From: Flavobacterium sp.
GTDB taxonomy: Bacteria > Bacteroidota > Bacteroidia > Flavobacteriales > Flavobacteriaceae
Direction: 5' to 3'
Assembly: GCF_043779715.1 (NCBI RefSeq)
Contig: NZ_JAYWDT010000240.1
Coordinates: 1,621-65,620 of the forward strand
Length of the DNA: 64,000 nucleotides
In this document: positions 41,095 to 50,698 of the stretch, in pieces
Position numbering within the stretch: position 1 is the stretch's first letter
How the letters are laid out: each line of letters opens with the position of its first letter
The notes under the pieces: generated by a model
Told to the model about the DNA's origin: nothing
The model's input: the letters and a program-made list of their open reading frames with translations, nothing else
The model's database searches: none
Program-made: the position numbers and the translations under genes

Positions 41095-41517
41095 TTATTC
41101 TATATGTTCGCCTCCGCCCAGCCATTTTCCAGTTGTATGCCATAGTTCATAATAATACAGCCATAAATACGTCCACGGAATAATTGTTGTACTAATATAA
41201 TTTTTCCTAGTAAATTCAGAATACTTTGGCATATAAAGACACAATGTTTCCTGTGAATACATGTGAGGTATTTTCTCACCAGATTCATTTACCACTAAGA
41301 TAGGATTAATTACTCTAACTTGAATAGGTTTTAAAAGATGAAACTTAATTTCAATAGTATACTTTTCACTTCTAGTTGTTGGCTGTATTATACCAGTAGC
41401 TTTAAGCTGCAAAGCGTCAAAATTGACTTTCCATGAAGAGTACTTTGCTTTGATAGTATTTACTTGCTCTACTATCGTTTTATCCCTGTTCAAATTTTTA
41501 ATCTTCATTATCTCCAA
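41095..41517 (-). CDS. E2 (ubiquitin-conjugating-like) protein of short type II CBASS (Cap2-like, E2 only)
   Basis: IPHMYSQETLCLY (PH..Y..LC), TIIPW..LWLYYYELW..TGKWLGGGEH; overlaps the CD-NTase. Confidence 0.8.
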   Translation of the reverse strand: MEIMKIKNLNRDKTIVEQVNTIKAKYSSWKVNFDALQLKATGIIQPTTRSEKYTIEIKFHLLKPIQVRVINPILVVNESGEKIPHMYSQETLCLYMPKYSEFTRKNYISTTIIPWTYLWLYYYELWHTTGKWLGGGEHIE

Positions 41518-42637
41518 AAAAAGTATTTGATTTTATGGGAGCTATTGAAGCCACACCCAATGCACCTAATGTTTCCGTTTTTTTATCTATTCCTAATTGA
41601 TTATTATTTCTTGCCTTATCAATCACATCTGTCTGCGAAATTTGTGCCTTCATATACAAATCATCACCGAATAAGTCTTTTAATATCCTACCTTCAGTTA
41701 TAATTCCATTTTCTTTTTTAAGTTCCTGCCATTGCACATAAAGATGTTCGCAAAAGGCTTTGAATGCTTCATAGTACTTTGGCTCACTTTCCCATTTGTC
41801 TGTAAAATCTTCTTCGGCATTTACTGGATTGAGTACTTTAATCCTAGCTGGAATATTGAAAGTATTTCTTCTTATCTGATTGACAATATTTTCTACTGCT
41901 AAAAATATACTATCTTCACCATTATAGTATTGTCCAGCAATTGTTGTTAGAACAATGCTTGAAGTTTTATAGGTGTCATCTTTCTGAAAATAAATATCTC
42001 TATACGTCTTTATCAATTGTACTGCTCTTTGTAGCGGCTTCTTGTTTTCATAGTCATTTGAAGGTAAATTTTCGGCACGAAGTGCTTTTTCTAACAAACT
42101 TACTTTTATAGTGTTTGCTTTGTTGAGAAACCATTTTGCATAACCTCTTGGATTGGAACTAACCCAATATCCTAATTGACGGTCTGGTACACGAAGTTTA
42201 TCTTCATCCCATTCGTTTTCCTGTATTCCTGGTAAAATATCCATATGGAAATCTCCTGCATAATTTAACCTAATACAACGGTTTTTCAATTCCATTTTTT
42301 CCTTGTAAACAGAATGTTCTGACAACCTTCTTTTTAGTTCGGCATAGATTTTTTCTGGAGTATGATTATTCCATTGAGCCTTAAGATGCAGTGCAATATC
42401 TAAATCGAATTCATCTTTACCGATTGGTTTTACAGTAGTTCGAATTCTAACCGAGCCATGTGGATATAATTCATACTTAAAAGGTTTGAAAAACAGTTCA
42501 TCTGCTTCAATCCATTTTTTTATAGCTTCATAATGCTGAATCATTAAGTCATAACGTGTTTTATCCAATTGCAATGATTCAGCCATCCTATCAAGTAGGT
42601 CGTCTAATTGGATATTTTTGTCTTGAAATTGTATCAT
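41498..42637 (-). CDS. CBASS CD-NTase (cyclic oligonucleotide synthase)
   Basis: HGSVRIRTTVKP..EFDLD, FHMDILPG, SNPRGYAKWF, PLQRAVQLIK.YRD; C-terminal KSNTFFG-DNED tail. Confidence 0.92.
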   Translation of the reverse strand: MIQFQDKNIQLDDLLDRMAESLQLDKTRYDLMIQHYEAIKKWIEADELFFKPFKYELYPHGSVRIRTTVKPIGKDEFDLDIALHLKAQWNNHTPEKIYAELKRRLSEHSVYKEKMELKNRCIRLNYAGDFHMDILPGIQENEWDEDKLRVPDRQLGYWVSSNPRGYAKWFLNKANTIKVSLLEKALRAENLPSNDYENKKPLQRAVQLIKTYRDIYFQKDDTYKTSSIVLTTIAGQYYNGEDSIFLAVENIVNQIRRNTFNIPARIKVLNPVNAEEDFTDKWESEPKYYEAFKAFCEHLYVQWQELKKENGIITEGRILKDLFGDDLYMKAQISQTDVIDKARNNNQLGIDKKTETLGALGVASIAPIKSNTFFGDNED

Positions 42638-43440
42638 CTTGGTAATATTTTAAATGTATGTGGTAATATTCTAACTCCAGAAGCAGTTGCTCCTTTTTTA
42701 ATTTCTTCAGCAGTAACAAATGCTATATTATCATTATTAGCCAAAGCTTTTATCGCTTGTCTTTGAGCATCAGTTTCTATTCGTAATTCAAAAATGTCTG
42801 CATGTCTGAATTGATCAATTGGATAATCCTCGTTTCTAAGAATACCTTCCTGATGGTCAAATAGGAAAGCATACTTTATATGTTTAAAATGTTCCGCAGG
42901 TAAATAACCAGGTTCTATTAATTCCTCAAAAAATTCTCGCCAAGGGTCAATTTCTCTATTTTTCCTACTATTAAACCATTTAAAAAAATCAATCAGATTC
43001 TTTCGTTTATTTATTTTAATTCTCAAGTCATTTTCTGTAGCACTATCTCTTGGAACCTCATTGCATGGAATTATGCCAAGTTTATCGAAATTTTCTCTGT
43101 TCTCTTCTTTAAAATATTTGTAAGCACCACCTACAGGCTGAAATCCAATAAAATCTTCTTTATGCCTTTTTATCAGCATGTATTTTCCGTTATGTTCTAT
43201 TCTGAAAAGATATGCCACAGTTACCCTTACAGGAGCATTTGATTTCCATATTTTTGTTACAAGCAATTTCCAATGTTTTTTATTATCATAAAGAAATACT
43301 ATAAAATCAATAATACTTGCTATTAAAAGCCCTAAAGCAATCTTAAAAACGGTACTTTGTGCCTCACCTGTTAGGAAGACACTACAAAATATCAGTCCTG
43401 TCAAACCAATAATGAAACTTATTTTTCCTTTTACATTCAT
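42634..43440 (-). CDS. 2TM + SMODS-associated NUDIX-like effector
   Basis: Two N-terminal TM; RVTVAYLFRIE..YMLIK, FQPVGGAYK, WREFFEEL; ATGA overlap with the CD-NTase. Confidence 0.8.
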   Translation of the reverse strand: MNVKGKISFIIGLTGLIFCSVFLTGEAQSTVFKIALGLLIASIIDFIVFLYDNKKHWKLLVTKIWKSNAPVRVTVAYLFRIEHNGKYMLIKRHKEDFIGFQPVGGAYKYFKEENRENFDKLGIIPCNEVPRDSATENDLRIKINKRKNLIDFFKWFNSRKNREIDPWREFFEELIEPGYLPAEHFKHIKYAFLFDHQEGILRNEDYPIDQFRHADIFELRIETDAQRQAIKALANNDNIAFVTAEEIKKGATASGVRILPHTFKILPR

Positions 43441-43445
43441 TTTGT

Positions 43446-43670
43446 CTATCCTTTAGGTGGAAAATTATCTTTTCCATATGTATTCCTTTCTCTTATTTGC
43501 CCATTCGGTCTATGAATAAACATTTCGGATTTCTGATTGATTGCAATGTTCCTTGCAATTTTTATTGCTTCAGTCTGAGTTGAAACTACTTTAGTAGCTT
43601 TACTATTACCAGCTCCTTTTACTTCCCAATTGTCCCCTTTAGGAACAACATGTTGATTTTTCTTGCTCAT
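43446..43670 (-). CDS. DUF2188-family small protein (probable start MSKKNQHVVP)
   Basis: HVVPKGDNWEVK..TQ.EAI..AR..IH..GQIRE..YG.D.FPPKG. Confidence 0.85.
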   Translation of the reverse strand: MSKKNQHVVPKGDNWEVKGAGNSKATKVVSTQTEAIKIARNIAINQKSEMFIHRPNGQIRERNTYGKDNFPPKG

Positions 43671-43701
43671 GATGATTTTTATTAATAATTTAGTTATACT
43701 T

Positions 43702-43769
43702 TTGTTGCATATATAAGATAAACAATTGTTTTGTTGCAACAAAGATAAATATTAATTTTGATTGTTGCA
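43702..43769. promoter_or_regulatory. Candidate operator: three TTGTTGCA boxes in the divergent CBASS/HTH promoter
   Basis: Copies at 43702, 43731 (within palindrome TTGTTGCAACAA) and 43762, about 30-bp spacing. Confidence 0.55.
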
Positions 43770-44793: not shown

Positions 44794-45555
44794 TTATTTA
44801 AAAATATCTTTTAATACGCTTGATAATCTTATGCCGGCTTTCTGGATCTGTTCCTGAATAATTATAAAGTTTGCATCAACATATGAGTCATTTATTTTGG
44901 CTCCGTAAGTTTTGTAAATTATTGGTAAATAACTTCTCGATTGGTTTGCCCATTCTATCACATCGATTTTCTCAATCTGCGCTACTTCTTCTTTTGAATA
45001 GGTTTTTGCTTTTAGGCATTGTGGTAATGACAAAGTTTTATACTCTATAATTCCAGAATCGTAGAATGAGTGGAGGTTAGTTCCCCGCCCATAAAAGTTT
45101 ATCTGGTAGTTGTTTCCACCTTTATCCTCTCCATAACCTACGTGTAATGGTTGGTGTAAATCGCCTACTAAATGAAACAGAATGCATAGTTTTGTTTTTA
45201 CTTCTTCTTTAGAAAGTGTTTTGTGATTTTTTAGTTCTTCTATTGTTTTAGTTAACGCACCAATAATATTCTCTTCGTTGTTTGCGGTTATTTTCTGACC
45301 TCTCTCTGCATTTATGTAATGTAATTTTCTAAGATAATCGTAAGCCTTGTCGCTTTTAATATCATCCATCCAATTTGCGGCATCCTGAATGGTCATTCCA
45401 TCAAGATATTCTAACAATACTTTTCTTGTAGCTGGATCTAAATAATTAAATGCTACTTCTGCAACTAATGAATGTCCTTTTTTACCCCAGGCAAAGGAAG
45501 TTGTAGATTGGAAAGCTGTGAATACTATTATTGTGAGAAAAATATATCGTTTCAT
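44794..45555 (-). CDS. S1/P1 nuclease
   Basis: Signal peptide; WGKKGH, WMDDIK, HLVGDLHQPLH, NLHSFYD. Confidence 0.93.
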   Translation of the reverse strand: MKRYIFLTIIVFTAFQSTTSFAWGKKGHSLVAEVAFNYLDPATRKVLLEYLDGMTIQDAANWMDDIKSDKAYDYLRKLHYINAERGQKITANNEENIIGALTKTIEELKNHKTLSKEEVKTKLCILFHLVGDLHQPLHVGYGEDKGGNNYQINFYGRGTNLHSFYDSGIIEYKTLSLPQCLKAKTYSKEEVAQIEKIDVIEWANQSRSYLPIIYKTYGAKINDSYVDANFIIIQEQIQKAGIRLSSVLKDIFK

Positions 45556-45754
45556 TTTTTGATTATTAAAAGTTTCGAAAGGTAGGTTTTTTTCTTTTAC
45601 TTCAAAAGAAGTGCTGATTGCAAATCATAAGTCTTCTCAATTGTTGTTTATTGCCAATACAACCATTAATTAGCCCTATCATATTTTAACTGTTTTAAAA
45701 TGATAAATAATCTGACGCAATTTCTAAATAACTTCTGTTAAGTCAAAATTTAGA

Positions 45755-46717
45755 TTAAATTTTAAACCCTTTATTTTTTGCAAAAAATATTATTGTTGCA
45801 AAAGTAATTGCATTATCAATATCTAATTTTCGATTATTGTAACTAGACTTTAAAAGGTTAATTGATTTTTCTTCATTATGTTTCACTTGATCTAAGCGAC
45901 AAAGTGATAAGAAATATTTCTCACCTACATCATAACTAAAAGCTGATGCGATAGCAAAAGAAACTTTAAGCCAATCATCATGTGTTTCTGTTATTGATAA
46001 ATTTCTTTTAGTTAGATATTTTATAATTTGTCTAATCGTATTTCTATCTTCGACTTTATTGAGACCTTCAGTGGCATAAGCACTTTTTAAGAGGGAAATA
46101 CTTTTGATTAGACCTTCTGATTTTTTTGAACTCTTTTTTTTATTTTCTTCTAAAAAATCAACATATACTTCAGCATTAGAATTAAAGAATATGTTTTCAT
46201 CCCATGAGGAAAAGCAAAGTCTTGAGATATCTTTACCGCTAACATCAAGTTCGATTTCATAGTTATCAATAAAGTAATTTTTCAAGGAGTTAAAAATAGC
46301 TTTATGTTTTTCGTAATTACTATTAATTTTTATCAACCCTTTTAGCCCGTTGCCAGAAGGAGAATCCCAAAATGATAAAATATATTTATCATTAGAAAGT
46401 ATTGTTTTGATATCTATTAGTTCGTTACTAGATAAATTGTCAATATCTAAAATCATAAGATTGTTATATATTGTTAACTCTGAAGCTTTTCTAACATTCG
46501 CGAATTCTGCACAAAAAGTTACAGCTGGTAATTTACTTTTGAGCACAACATACAATTCCTTATTATTAGCAGCTAGAGCCGCTCTGCATTTTAATATCAA
46601 ATCTTTATACTTACCAGTTTTAATATTTTTCAATTCATCAAACAATAATATACTAACGCCTTGTTTGGCAGTCATATTTTGAAACTGAGTAATTCTGATT
46701 TCCGAAAGTTTTTTCAT
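45755..46717 (-). CDS. VirE N-terminal (BT4734-like) + PriCT-2 primase-like protein, with no helicase domain
   Basis: KSKLPAVTF, LMILDID, SPSGNGLKG, DISRLCFSSWD (VirE_N); DWLKVSFAIA..G..F..L..ITFATIIFFAK..G (PriCT-2). Confidence 0.82.
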   Translation of the reverse strand: MKKLSEIRITQFQNMTAKQGVSILLFDELKNIKTGKYKDLILKCRAALAANNKELYVVLKSKLPAVTFCAEFANVRKASELTIYNNLMILDIDNLSSNELIDIKTILSNDKYILSFWDSPSGNGLKGLIKINSNYEKHKAIFNSLKNYFIDNYEIELDVSGKDISRLCFSSWDENIFFNSNAEVYVDFLEENKKKSSKKSEGLIKSISLLKSAYATEGLNKVEDRNTIRQIIKYLTKRNLSITETHDDWLKVSFAIASAFSYDVGEKYFLSLCRLDQVKHNEEKSINLLKSSYNNRKLDIDNAITFATIIFFAKNKGFKI

Positions 46718-46725
46718 ACAGTATG

Positions 46726-46743
46726 CAAAAATAGTTATATTTG
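46726..46743. promoter_or_regulatory. Back-to-back Bacteroidota -7 boxes (TAnnTTTG)
   Basis: TATTTTTG on the - strand (46733-46726) 9 nt before the primase ATG; TATATTTG on the + strand (46736-46743) before the RNA/RT. Confidence 0.6.
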
Positions 46744-46749
46744 TTTAAT

Positions 46750-46934
46750 GCGTAGCTAAGGGTGTTATGTATAACATCATTTTAAACAGGAGGGCTATTT
46801 GGCCTAGGAAGAGAAATCAACCGAAAAATCCGCGGGTCATAAGGGTCCTGATTATTTTATTTTCTGGCTCGATTGTGTATTGAGTTCATCGGTAGACAGT
46901 CTTTATTCATCTATTATTTAATTTCCGGCTACGC
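46750..46934 (+). ncRNA. Putative RT-associated structured RNA
   Basis: Terminal stem GCGTAGCT (46750-57) / GGCTACGC (46927-34); internal hairpins at 46761-78, 46787-850 and 46866-86; ~39% GC by hand count in an AT-rich island; begins just after a -7 box. Confidence 0.6.
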
Positions 46935-46951
46935 TTTTTATTTGCAAATTA

Positions 46952-48750
46952 ATGACAGATTTAAATTCTTATTTCACAGAGGAAAATATTATTAAGTTGC
47001 TCTGTAAATATAGGGCAAATGAGGCTAATAAGCGACATGCGAAACACATGATTAGAAATGTTAGTTTGCATAAATCTACTAATAAAGTTTTGATAACCGA
47101 TGAGCAAGAGAATTTCAAGTTTCTACAAAAGTTATTTCCTTCAAGAAGAGATTGGAAAAAATTAAATGAAATTGAAAGGAAAACCTATGTAGATACTTTA
47201 AGTATTAATAGAAAGCGTCTTTATAAATCATATGAAACAGCAAAAAGGGAAGTTGATACAAGAGGAGGTATTCCTGCTGAGTGGTATAAACAACTTATCG
47301 ATTTTGTGAATGAAATAAAAGATGATATTGACAATATCGAAATATCTTCATTTATATTTAGTAAACCAGATATTCTGGGGATTAAAAAGGAAATAAAGCA
47401 TGAGATTATAGAAGGGGTAAAGCATAACACCATAATATAATATACAGACCTATTGCTTTATATGAATACAAAGACAAAATAATATGTTCTTTAACTTCAA
47501 GGTATTTAGTAAATTATTTTGAGCCCCTTTTTGCCAAACTAAATTGTTCTTTTGCCTTTAGACCAAAAAATACTGATGATAGGGTTCCTGACCATCATGA
47601 TTGTATACAAGAAATTTTAGTTTACAAGAATCAACATCCTGATTTGTGGGTGTCAGAGTGTGATATTCAGAAATTTTTTGATACAGTACAGCACAATCAT
47701 ATACTTAAGGTTTTGGATAAGCATACAACGGTGGTTGAAAAAAAATCTGGGTTTATATTTGACATACGAGCGAGAAAAATTTTTAATTTATTTCTCGAAT
47801 CATTCAATTTTCAACAAAGCATTTTAAGTTTAGATGCAGCTTGGTTTGAATCTAAAAACTTACCATTTGGAAAGTTTAAGTGGGTTGAGAGCCAATTAAA
47901 TGCAAAGTTTGGCTCTAATTATACAGAAACACACAAAATTGGAGTACCACAGGGTAATGCTATCTCTTGTTTTATAGCAAATCTAATTTTACATGATGTA
48001 GATGTTAGCGTTAAGCAATATGATAGTTCAATTTTTTATATTCGATATTGTGACGATATGGTTTTAATGCATCCTGATGAAAAAAAATGTTTGGAAGCAT
48101 TAAAAATATATATGAAGGGTATTGATGATAATTATCTCTTATTTCATGCTCCGGAGAAATTTGTAAATTATAAAAATCGTTTGACAAGTCATGATTTTTG
48201 GGAATCAAAGTCAAAAGAACCTTTTTTTTGGGGAGACAAAAACTCTAATGAAAATAATGTTCCTTGGGTATCGTTTGTTGGGTATCAAGTTGACTATCAT
48301 AAGCGGATAAGAGTAAGGAAGTCTACCTTGAAAAAGGAAACTAAAAAACAAATATTTGAAACCCAAAAGGTCATAAAGGCACTAGGAAAACTTCACAGAC
48401 ACATGGAAGTGGAAGATGAGTATGCTAGATTATCCAAAGACCAAATTGTTTTTAGAATGCAACAGCGATTAATTTCGATGTCAGTAGGAAGAGTAACCAT
48501 CCATAATCACAGAAAGCCATTAGAGCAGGGATTTTGTTGGACAAATGGATTTAAAAAACTTGAAAAGAATAGAATAAGTAAGAAACAGATAAGACATTTG
48601 GATAAAAGGAGAAACCTTCAAATTAATAGAATTCGAAGAGAGCTGCGAAAAGTTGAAAAACCTAACGATAACGCTACCTTTCCCGATGAATTAAAAAAAC
48701 TTCGCTTTGGTGGTGCTTATAGTTATTATAATTTTTTAAAGCATAAATAG
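46952..48750 (+). pseudogene. UG/Abi-like reverse transcriptase (~597 aa when repaired), frameshifted at 47432-47444
   Basis: Frame 2 MTDLN..KPDILGIKKE..HNTII* joins frame 1 IIYRPIALY..SFAFRP..ECDIQKFFDTV..GVPQGNAIS..YIRYCDDMV..SFVGY; all core RT motifs present. Confidence 0.88.
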
Positions 48751-48792
48751 TTTACTTAAATGAATAAACACCAAATAAACTTTTTTTTATAG

Positions 48793-49524
48793 TTAATTAT
48801 CTTCTAGTACTATTAAGTATTTTTTATATAGTTCCACAAAGATTTTGTCGATTAGTATTAATACTCCGAAATAAACAAAATAATTCTCATACTTAATATT
48901 TTCTCCAAGCAGTGTTTTTAAGGTTGGCAAATTTTGCTGATATGATTGGGTATTGTGTGCTATTTTATTCCTGCGTTTGTATAAATGTTCTTCGTATATT
49001 CTTTTCAAAGAATTGTCAGTAGTTCCTGCTGCAAATAATGTGTTATCGTCATTTGCGAAAGATGAAATTAAAATACTGTTCCAAATCGTGCTGTATTCGT
49101 TAAAACTCTTTTGTGCCCAAATTGACAAATTTGTATTTAAAAACCTATTTGTCAGTTCTGAAGTTGTAGTGGATAAGATTTCCGCTTTATTGATTTCAGT
49201 TAAGACATTAAAGCTTGAATTGTATTTTTTTATTTGCTTAATTAAATCTTTATAAATTGTTTGTTTGTCTTTGAAAGTCGAACATTCGCCCAATGGCATT
49301 TTGGTAAAATGATATCTATATTCGAAATCATTAGTAGCCATTTCCCAGCAGATACATTTCATTTTTTGTTCTTGCGAACCAGTCATTTTTAGAAAAACAG
49401 ATTGCATAACATAGTCGCACATTGGGAATGTTTCAATACCACTGCCGATTCCAGCACTAGCAGAAACAACATCTTTTAATATATCGGAAATTGGCGATAA
49501 AATGAATTGACTGTGATTATGCAT
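48793..49524 (-). CDS. HEPN-like protein (putative RNase)
   Basis: C-terminal RRNKIAHN (Rx4H); overlaps the DUF262 gene by 8 nt. Confidence 0.6.
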   Translation of the reverse strand: MHNHSQFILSPISDILKDVVSASAGIGSGIETFPMCDYVMQSVFLKMTGSQEQKMKCICWEMATNDFEYRYHFTKMPLGECSTFKDKQTIYKDLIKQIKKYNSSFNVLTEINKAEILSTTTSELTNRFLNTNLSIWAQKSFNEYSTIWNSILISSFANDDNTLFAAGTTDNSLKRIYEEHLYKRRNKIAHNTQSYQQNLPTLKTLLGENIKYENYFVYFGVLILIDKIFVELYKKYLIVLEDN

Positions 49525-50698
49525 TTAGAAAAGTTTTATAAATATCAATTGAAGAATCAATGCGGGACTTCAAATACTTTAGTGCGTTTGGAGCTCTAGT
49601 GTGTGATGGATCTGCTTTGAATAATCTTATTTTTTCGTCAAGTTTTTCTTTTAGAAGATCTTTTTTGGTAATATCTAATACCTTGTTTTGAAAAACGATA
49701 GTATATATTAATCCAAACAAATACAAATCTAAATCGATAATAGATGTGTATTGTGTAGGTGTTTCCAAGGAAGTAATACTCTCCTTTAGATGTTCAAAAC
49801 GTTCACTATAATTTCGGTCATTAAAAATAGTTGAAAAATCAACAAATAATGATGAATCATTCTCGCCTACTACAGAATATATGTATTCTTCATAATAAGT
49901 TTCCATTTTAGGTTTGTAACCTCTTGCCACTTTATTCGTGTTGCCATCTTTTATATACTGTGATAATAAAGAAAGATATCGAACAAAGTCTGCCTTGGAT
50001 TCAGCACTACCGCTTCTACTAATAATAAACCGGACAAATTTTGGGTCAAAAAAATCGCCTAAATTTTTATCTAGAAAGTATAATGATGCTCGGCTTTCTT
50101 GCGGCAGGAGAACTTGTCCCTGAACATTTATATTACGAAAAACTGATGAATAATATTTCTGTTGGATTTGATCGCTGTTTGCAATATCGGGAACTAAATA
50201 TGAAAAACCGAGAAATGTCGTTTTTAGAAACTCCTCGTCAATGTTTAAATTTATATTTTTATAATTGCCCTCGGTTATTCTACTGAGTATTTGTTCTCTA
50301 TTTTTTCCTTTCTCAGTCAATAAGTTAAATTTCCATTCGAAGATATTGTCAAGCGAATCGTCCTCTTCATCTTCCTCATCTATTTCACTGGCGAATCTTT
50401 CTTGAGTCAATTTATAGATTGTTTTATCGGGATATAGCCCTAAGTACGCCAGTAATATGCTAGTTAACCTTTGCTGTCCGTCAAGAAGTAAATTTTGGTT
50501 AGCATTTCCAATTTTAAAAGCTCCAATTGTTACTGGAGGAACAAATTGCTTTTTCTTGAAAGTATTGATTAAGGTTTCTACTTTTCTTTCGTTCCAAACA
50601 AAATATCGTTGATAATCTGGAAGAATAATGTTTTGTTTTAAAATTAAATCAATCCAATGTTCTAGAGAATACTCTCCATAAAAAACTCTATTATCCAT
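49517..50698 (-). CDS. DUF262 (ParB/Srx-like, GmrSD N-terminal) domain protein
   Basis: LPDYQRYFVW, LLLDGQQRLTS, FRNINVQG. Confidence 0.87.
   Translation of the reverse strand: MDNRVFYGEYSLEHWIDLILKQNIILPDYQRYFVWNERKVETLINTFKKKQFVPPVTIGAFKIGNANQNLLLDGQQRLTSILLAYLGLYPDKTIYKLTQERFASEIDEEDEEDDSLDNIFEWKFNLLTEKGKNREQILSRITEGNYKNINLNIDEEFLKTTFLGFSYLVPDIANSDQIQQKYYSSVFRNINVQGQVLLPQESRASLYFLDKNLGDFFDPKFVRFIISRSGSAESKADFVRYLSLLSQYIKDGNTNKVARGYKPKMETYYEEYIYSVVGENDSSLFVDFSTIFNDRNYSERFEHLKESITSLETPTQYTSIIDLDLYLFGLIYTIVFQNKVLDITKKDLLKEKLDEKIRLFKADPSHTRAPNALKYLKSRIDSSIDIYKTFLNA

Follow-up and report, generated by a model that had tools for sequence, protein, structure and literature searches.

A conserved pseudoknot-containing RNA upstream of a UG39 reverse transcriptase gene in Flavobacterium is probably the cognate RNA of the system

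A structured RNA lies between the UG39 reverse transcriptase and primase-like genes

We analyzed a 64,000-nucleotide (nt) stretch of Flavobacterium sp. DNA (RefSeq assembly GCF_043779715.1, contig NZ_JAYWDT010000240.1, positions 1,621 to 65,620), hereafter referred to as the window, to whose numbering all coordinates refer. A divergent gene pair in the window, encoding a UG39 reverse transcriptase (RT) on the + strand and an archaeo-eukaryotic primase (AEP)-like protein on the - strand, flanks a 234-bp spacer (46718-46951), and a structured noncoding RNA (ncRNA) element lies inside this spacer. The UG39-associated ncRNA, detected with covariance models, occupies 46750-46934 on the + strand, ~185 nt from the first to the last base of its closing helix. 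We conclude that this segment probably encodes the cognate ncRNA of a UG39 system composed of the RT, the RNA, and the AEP primase-like protein. An original prediction, made from the sequence without database searches, had proposed that the RNA at this site is the scaffold or template of the RT. Its position, covariation in relatives, and the precedent of Class 2 RTs support that proposal, in which the template role is argued by analogy.

UG39 loci were collected by a protein-pattern scan of 185,579 species genomes, which yielded 33 loci, and by a metagenome scan, from which 80 of 448 relatives were taken, giving a total of 113 loci. Divergent RTs from various lineages, some without a nearby primase match, were tested by profile, and 10/10 were assigned to UG39 and 0/10 to DRT9. 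In the Bacteroidota loci, the upstream spacers aligned over their full length with that of the window.

Two covariance models were used to delimit the element. The first, R1, was built only from 11 marine Flavobacteriaceae sequences (alignment A2), so that neither the window nor its subgroup contributed. It found the window RNA at 46746-46938 on the + strand (46.8 bits; E = 3.4e-10) as well as 33 further RNAs, every one of them just upstream of an RT. The second, R2, covers 31 non-redundant RNAs, including three from outside the training set (L004, L040, and L069), and scored the window RNA at 104.8 bits. All 31 R2 matches were on the RT strand and ended 7-26 nt before the RT ATG, which ruled out the possibility, raised together with the original prediction, that the region is an unconserved 5' untranslated region. 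The RNAs were 165-227 nt long, across RTs sharing only ~36-60% identity. R2 had a single match in the window's own 2.8-Mb genome and none in 440 other genomes (40 relatives and 400 of the class), indicating that the element is rare, specific, and patchily distributed. An analysis of co-occurrence by random genome sampling was uninformative at this rarity (0/440), and the count shows specificity only.

Covariation supports a conserved fold on the RT strand

Base pairing was evaluated in three alignments: A2, of the marine group, and A6, of the window's own group, both of which were sequence-only MAFFT alignments, and A7, a model-derived alignment of 31 sequences. As a control, the partner strands were slid against each other, and a double change was counted when both bases of a pair were altered. 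In A2, 94.8% of cells could pair, compared to 36-44% when slid, and 25 pairs had double changes (4-7 when slid). For the window's own group the values were 89.8% versus 24-41% of cells and 14 versus 1-8 double-change pairs. In the 31-sequence alignment, 92.8% of cells could pair versus 35-44%, double changes occurred in 35/45 pairs versus 7-19, and the covariation score was 0.50 versus at most 0.13. A blind scan of all column pairs returned helices P1, P2, P3a, P4, and P5, described below, as the five strongest covarying stacks, and the stacks ranked below these were weaker and appeared spurious. Covariation among homologs had been set beforehand as a test of the original prediction, and it was found, with helices kept by compensatory changes in the 31 RNAs. 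The many G-U pairs are tolerated on the + strand only, which fixes the strand of the RNA.

Single-sequence folding, which had also been proposed as a check, agreed with this strand assignment but gave much weaker support than the comparison of homologs. RNAfold gave -48.4 kcal/mol for the + strand (z = -2.24; 3/200 shuffles were equally good), whereas the - strand folded no better than shuffles (z = 0.05). The nested parts of the conserved fold amounted to about -44 kcal/mol, compared to -49.6 kcal/mol for the minimum free energy (MFE) fold, and the P4 duplex adds about -8.8 kcal/mol. Comparison of these homologous sequences showed a conserved RNA on the RT strand that is closed by helix P1 and contains the pseudoknot P4, three hairpins (P2, P3a, and P5), and helix P3, which forms a junction together with P3b and P7.

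The closing inverted repeat of the original prediction was confirmed as P1, with the 5' strand GCGUAGCU (in full, GCGTAGCT; 46750-46757) pairing with the 3' strand GGCUACGC (in full, GGCTACGC; 46927-46934), followed by a run of five U residues (46935-46939). P1 has 8 bp in the window and 9-19 bp in relatives, 10/12 of its pairs had double changes in A7, and a run of at least four T residues follows it in 24/31 RNAs. A (G)AAGRnG motif follows P1 in all lineages, and its conserved AAG is located 5' of P2 (46761-46778), a GGUGUUA-UGUA-UAACAUC hairpin with double changes in 4/7 pairs and pairing in 95.5% of cells. The alignments then show a single strand of constant 8-nt length, J2/3 (46779-46786), which is AUUUUAAA here and AUAUUGAA or AUAUUAA elsewhere. 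P3 joins CAGGA (46787-46791) to UCCUG (46846-46850) and is invariant in 30/31 RNAs; the sole variant, CGGG/CCCG in L020/L049, is compensatory. Within P3 are the hairpin P3a, GGGCU-AUUU-GGCCU (46792-46805; double changes in 5/5 pairs and pairing in 97.2% of cells), and P3b (46807-46822), in which GG at 46807-46808 pairs with CC at 46821-46822. P3b is helix 5 in A2 and A7, and marine relatives have a variable extra hairpin at this site.

The single strand GAAAAAU (46823-46829; GAAAMAAU in the family), formed by nearly invariant columns, leads to P7 (46830-46845). P7 pairs CC (46830-46831) with GG (46844-46845) and closes a loop that holds one strand of the pseudoknot. Clade-level changes support it, with three Watson-Crick states across clades (CC/GG, UU/AA, and GG/CC), and it was absent from the aligning model. 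The pseudoknot P4 pairs CGGGUC (46833-46838) with GGCUCG (46866-46871), crossing both P3 and P7. Double changes were found in 5/5 of its pairs, 92.1% of cells could pair in the 31-sequence alignment, and both sequence-only alignments (A2 and A6) support it too. Between P3 and P4 lies the linker AUUAUUUUAUUUUCU (46851-46865), which the alignments show to be U-rich in the window's Flavobacterium/Pedobacter-like subgroup and UGCUUAU-like in marine relatives. P5 (46872-46900) is formed by AUUGUGUAU (46872-46880) and GUAGACAGU (46892-46900). It had double changes in 5/5 pairs in the 31-sequence alignment and in 5/8 pairs within group A, and it is also predicted by the single-sequence MFE fold. P5 is dispensable for the core fold, since the L003/L004/L040 subtype lacks it entirely and retains P1-P4 and the AUGUAUCAC tail motif. 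The RNA ends in a pyrimidine-rich 3' tail, UUUAUUCAUCUAUUAUUUAAUUUCC (46902-46926), and the listed tails of relatives carry a UAUC or GUAU motif.

These helices account for part of the hairpins that had been drawn inside the closing repeat. GGTGTTA-tgta-TAACATC and CAGGA/TCCTG with its inner GGGCT-attt-GGCCT are conserved (P2, P3, and P3a), whereas the two 3' hairpins are not conserved pairings. The strings GGCTCGAT/ATTGAGTT and GGTAGA/TCTATT are indeed complementary, but their bases belong to P4 and P5.

Two other pairings were considered and rejected. When both subgroups were combined in a plain MAFFT alignment, RNAalifold recovered only P1, part of P3a, and a UAGG/CCUG pairing; the last was discarded, since CAGG is favored by L020 (CGGG/CCCG) and L017 and the GG of UAGG is taken up by P3b. 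A hairpin in the marine tail, P6 (UCAAU/AUUGA), departed from pairing only through unpaired cells, with no compensation. The blind column-pair scan showed no tertiary helix between J2/3 and the tail beyond the known helices.

Marine relatives L005-L014, L043, and L046 carry an insertion in the P5 loop (CAGAG, CAGAA, CAGGG, or AGAAG) whose complement (CUCUG, UUCUG, or CUUCU) spans the boundary where the 3' strand of P4 meets the 5' strand of P5, and one of the changes looks compensatory. Judging from these sequences, this pairing, which is exclusive with P4 and P5, may be a conformational switch or a relic of slippage.

Promoters and composition of the spacer

A Bacteroidota-type -7 promoter box for the RNA/RT transcript, TATATTTG, is present at 46736-46743 on the + strand. 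As originally described, P1 starts 7 nt after this box, and the RT ATG (46952) lies 17 nt after P1. The motif TAnnTTTG occurs 2-4 nt upstream of the model start in 24/31 homologous RNAs, and from the known Bacteroidetes consensus we infer that the TATATTTG box acts as a promoter. A second -7 box, TATTTTTG, is located on the - strand at 46726-46733 and would serve the divergent primase-like gene; homologs retain CAAAAATA or TAAATATA at this site. The primase ATG is only ~9 nt from its -7 box, and the primase mRNA would therefore be nearly leaderless. The two boxes stand back to back, 2 nt apart (46726-46743), as CAAAAATA (which is TATTTTTG on the - strand) followed by TATATTTG, and this layout is conserved.

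The GC content of the RNA is 39.5%, in agreement with the earlier hand count of ~39%, and exceeds that of the flanking primase (27.2%) and RT (30.5%) genes; the entire 64-kb window has 32.8%. A search of 45500-49800 against Rfam 15 with cmscan, to E = 10, returned only a chance mir-395 match inside the RT gene and no retron family.

The RT and its primase-like partner

The RT gene (46952-48750, + strand) is read in two frames, 46952-47440 and 47428-48750. The PADLOC profile RT_UG39 matched the second frame with E = 6.8e-138 (profile positions 134-539) and the 162-amino acid (aa) open reading frame (ORF) at 46952-47440 with E = 2.9e-25 (profile positions 2-133). Competing PADLOC models scored far lower (Drt9, 1.5e-23; the best retron model, RT_Ec107-like, 3.6e-09). 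By these profile matches, the window RT is a UG39 enzyme of the Class 2 UG/Abi RTs. Mestre 2022 (PMC9226505) defined UG39 by an RT together with a VirE_N/PriCT-2 protein (cluster 64) and placed it in Class 2, separated from UG28 (= DRT9) as "UG28b".

UG39 RT homologs have an uninterrupted ORF of ~590 aa. Their N-terminus (46952-47440 in the window; columns 1-140 of alignment A3) forms an extra basic, helical domain of ~130-160 aa with the near-invariant motif YF-x4-II-x2-LCKYRA-x4-KRH-x-KHM-x-R-x2-S-x-H. The Drt9 profile aligns only from RT motif 1 onward, so that this domain falls outside the shorter DRT9 profile. Based on its sequence, it is plausibly an RNA-binding module. An invariant tyrosine is found in the C-terminal tail of the homologs, within the motif FG-x-(P/A)-(F/Y)-S-Y. 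The five best PDB matches of an AlphaFold2 (AF2) model of an intact UG39 homolog (predicted local distance difference test, 85; predicted template modeling score, 0.83) were all DRT9 RT-ncRNA complexes, and DRT9 was also the best DRT match of the UG39 RT by sequence.

The partner gene (45755-46717, - strand) is intact and encodes a full-length, 320-aa VirE_N/BT4734 plus PriCT-2 (AEP primase-like) protein, identified by PADLOC (RTasVirE-PriCT2, 1.8e-103) and Pfam (BT4734-like_N, 8e-25; PriCT_2, 1e-4). A primase gene adjoins the RT in 65/113 UG39 loci, and many of the remaining loci are cut short. The partner is likely active, since D91-x-D93, SPSGxGxK, H138, D158, D163, and R166 are invariant across 55 homologs.

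The RT is broken in this genome. Comparison with L018, L034, L036, and L037 identified a tandem ATAAT-ATAAT at 47432-47441 (+ strand) that shifts the RT frame directly 5' of the conserved IYRPIA motif; homologs without the 5-nt duplication read ATAATTTATAGACC in one frame. The UG39 system is thus probably off in this genome. The RNA and the primase gene are intact, and the R2 score of the window RNA, 104.8 bits, is on par with those of the closest intact relatives (105.5 bits for L037). The RT loss looks recent, or it may be a variant within the 283-contig assembly.

A related RNA architecture in other phyla

In non-Bacteroidota loci, the primase gene is co-directional with the RT gene and ends 100-190 nt before it. 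In these co-directional loci (L059-L111), the 5' strand of the closing helix and the GAAG motif lie inside the last codons of the primase ORF. Their closing helices are of unrelated sequence (e.g., GGAGGCAGU/ACUGCCUCC), and they share the (G)AAGRnG motif after the closing helix, an AUAUUA-type J2/3, an invariant CAGUAUGG, and a U-run before the ATG. RNAalifold recovered the closing helix on six of these loci. An invariant UCAGUAUGG was also observed in L059-L111, 30-60 nt before the RT start.

The closing helix was further examined by calculating, relative to shuffles, the energy of the duplex that the 45 nt directly preceding the RT start can form with sequence 85-300 nt upstream. The duplex had z < -2 in 39/77 UG39 loci, which come from many phyla, and at most 1/100 shuffles were as good in 31/77. 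These energies replaced a test of the longest complementary run, which was uninformative in AT-rich DNA (11.1 versus 9.5). For annotation, the family-wide hallmark is a closing helix, then (G)AAGRnG, then a U-run before the RT start.

The RNA as a scaffold and candidate template of the RT

In all studied Class 2 members (DRT2, DRT9, and DRT10), the upstream ncRNA serves as scaffold and template (PMC12632851; bioRxiv 10.64898/2026.06.29.735271), and a template flanked by two stem-loops is common to Class 2 RTs (bioRxiv 10.64898/2026.06.29.735271; PMC12632851). DRT9 and DRT10 prime DNA synthesis from a C-terminal Tyr or Ser (PMC12483538; PMC12489045; PMC12632851). Given this precedent, the DRT9 structural matches, and the C-terminal tail tyrosine, the UG39 RNA is expected to scaffold the RT and to carry its template. 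Transcription from the -7 box at 46736-46743 would place it in the 5' portion of the RT transcript and, given the U-run after P1, it would probably also exist as a discrete RNA. The RT would bind the RNA, which by analogy would both scaffold the enzyme and supply a short single-stranded template with stem-loops on either side. The RT may then make repeated DNA copies of this template, with the invariant tyrosine in its C-terminal tail as the primer, as in DRT9 and DRT10. The primase-polymerase partner would act on the DNA made by the RT; its simplest role would be to synthesize the second strand, like the fused primase-polymerase of DRT7.

Four single strands are framed by stem-loops: J2/3, GAAAAAU, the linker, and the 3' tail. 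As a first guess, the template is the linker (46851-46865), whose position matches that of the U-tract template in DRT9, with the 3' tail, J2/3, and GAAAAAU as alternatives. The 3' tail is a candidate for either the template or an RT-binding strand. A repeat-like reading of the linker, AUG-CUU-AUG, showed no covariation.

Several points weigh against the assignment of this RNA as a UG39 cofactor and template. Alignments derived from R1 and R2 are biased towards the modeled helices (P3 and P7 were not modeled). P3 is almost invariant, so that its support comes from one compensatory lineage, and that for P7 from ~3 independent clade-level changes. A-B-A' direct repeats in the 3' tail were at chance level (3.9 nt observed versus 3.8 nt shuffled), and marine relatives do not conserve the U-rich linker. 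The RT of the window is frameshifted. To our knowledge, phage defense by UG39 has never been demonstrated. The prediction of a defense role for UG39 in Mestre 2022 (PMC9226505) was inconclusive.

Alternative explanations

The element might instead be a cis-acting structured 5' leader that controls translation of the RT or stability of its transcript, as an autoregulatory element or attenuator, and that is neither a cofactor nor copied. The 7-26-nt gap to the RT ATG and the U-run after P1 indicate that the element is part of the RT transcript, or its terminator, and the fact that no template segment has been pinpointed also fits a leader. We nevertheless consider it unlikely. Approximately 45 covarying pairs, including a pseudoknot, over 165-227 nt exceed the needs of known leaders of such genes, and all studied Class 2 UG RTs use their upstream RNA in trans as scaffold and template. 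Unlike a simple leader, the RNA also starts within the primase ORF in co-directional loci.

Much less probable is a DRT2-like template, in which the whole RNA would be copied by rolling-circle reverse transcription into a Neo-like gene. The closing helix does juxtapose the RNA ends, as in DRT2, but most of the 31 homologs have no stop-free strand and frame across the RNA. Moreover, the longest open frame switches strand and frame among homologs, and hairpin lengths vary by non-multiples of 3.

The original prediction had likened the layout to the a1/a2 repeats of retrons. Such an RNA would be of the msr-msd type, in which the 2'-OH of a branching G primes cDNA synthesis, yielding msDNA. The closing repeats are present, as a terminal inverted repeat around a multi-stem RNA directly upstream of the RT, but the RT is not a retron RT, which leaves the comparison as no more than an analogy. 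Its match to UG39 (6.8e-138) dwarfs that to the best retron model (3.6e-09), DRT9 enzymes are its best structural matches while retron RTs rank 43rd or lower, no Rfam retron or other family matches the RNA, and the partner is a primase rather than a retron effector. A retron-like RNA is thus highly improbable. There is equally little to be said for the absence of any RNA, i.e., a conserved divergent promoter/operator region or a chance fold in an AT-rich spacer: although two -7 boxes stand at the upstream edge and the single-sequence z is only -2.24, conservation and compensatory changes continue for 185 nt past the promoter, only the + strand tolerates G-U pairs, and DNA operators do not covary as long-range helices.

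Comparison with known RT systems

DRT9 (UG28; PMC12483538; PMC12489045; PDB 9VMA, 9NLV, and 9IOA) is likewise a Class 2 UG/Abi RT with a ~180-nt structured ncRNA immediately upstream on the same strand, and the conserved C-terminal tail tyrosine of UG39 resembles the DRT9 priming tyrosines. The RNAs were compared by layout. Like SenDRT9 (U123-126, SL6, and a 3' U-rich region), RNAs of the window's subgroup have a U-rich strand about two thirds along, followed by a stem-loop and a pyrimidine-rich tail. The systems differ in that the RT is UG39 and not UG28 (6.8e-138 versus 1.5e-23), with an extra basic N-terminal domain, and in that UG39 has an almost constant AEP primase-like partner, whereas DRT9 has none. 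The UG39 RNA also lacks a universally conserved poly-U tract, and its fold contains a pseudoknot.

DRT10 (UG17; RT-ncRNA-SLATT; PMC12632851; bioRxiv 10.64898/2026.06.29.735271) is, like UG39, a Class 2 system with an upstream ncRNA. It uses a poorly conserved single-stranded template window framed by stem-loops, and priming from a C-terminal Ser or Tyr. By analogy, the DRT10 model would best fit the UG39 RNA, whose single strands vary between lineages. In DRT10, however, the third component is a SLATT membrane effector, compared to a primase-like enzyme in UG39, and the tail repeats of UG39 are at chance level.

DRT7 (UG10; bioRxiv 10.64898/2026.04.18.719102) resembles UG39 in coupling an RT with an AEP-type primase-polymerase. 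The RT product of DRT7 is passed to the primase-polymerase, which builds duplex-like DNA (bioRxiv 10.64898/2026.04.18.719102). DRT7 is a Class 1 system with fused enzymes that is protein-templated and has no ncRNA, whereas UG39 has separate genes and an RNA. Retron msr-msd RNAs share the closing inverted repeat, a feature common among RT RNAs and not decisive; they differ in RT clade, and the UG39 RNA matches no Rfam family. The telomerase RNA core with fill-in by Pol alpha-primase offers an analogy only, in which an RT-bound RNA has a pseudoknot next to a single strand and an AEP-family primase belongs to the same system. A relationship of Class 2 UG RTs to TERT has been proposed (PMC12632851).

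These analogies raise the tentative possibility, which we consider rather doubtful, that UG39 is a three-part DNA writer in which the RT, in complex with the pseudoknotted RNA, would make protein-primed repeat DNA on a short template, and this DNA would have its complementary strand primed and completed by a separate AEP primase-polymerase, yielding double-stranded repeats. The CUCUG/CAGAG pairing of marine RNAs, alternative to P4 and P5, could then be a gating switch. If so, UG39 would parallel, in bacteria, the cooperation of telomerase with Pol alpha-primase and would be the first RNA-templated Class 2 system to have an enzyme of its own for the second strand.

Each Class 2 UG RT studied so far writes DNA from a small RNA in its own way: DRT2 assembles a gene, DRT9 makes poly-dA, and DRT10 produces telomerase-like repeats. 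UG39 is a catalogued sister of DRT9 and is alone among these systems in having a near-constant stand-alone AEP primase. No RNA has been described for UG39 or RT-VirE/PriCT systems in the literature searched, and Mestre 2022 (PMC9226505), the only paper there to discuss UG39, reports none. The boundaries, strand, fold, promoter, and single strands of the RNA, together with two covariance models and ~110 loci, allow the system to be rebuilt and rationally mutated.

Genomic neighborhood

The locus is in a defense island, flanked on its upstream side by a CBASS cyclase and a 2TM effector and on its downstream side by a GmrSD_N and HEPN pair. The CBASS-like unit (41498-43742, - strand) encodes an oligonucleotide cyclase (PADLOC, 8.7e-153), a 2TM/NUDIX-type effector (1.9e-79), and a PDC-S16 small protein (3e-36). 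Between this unit and the primase gene is an S1/P1-family nuclease gene (44794-45555, - strand; Pfam, 1.2e-51) for which no link to the RT system was seen. Two overlapping genes convergent with the RT gene occupy 48793-50698 on the - strand; one encodes a GmrSD_N/DUF262 protein (Pfam, 4.3e-20), and the second has an RRNKIAHN motif and a weak match to HEPN_MAE_28990 (1.4e-3).

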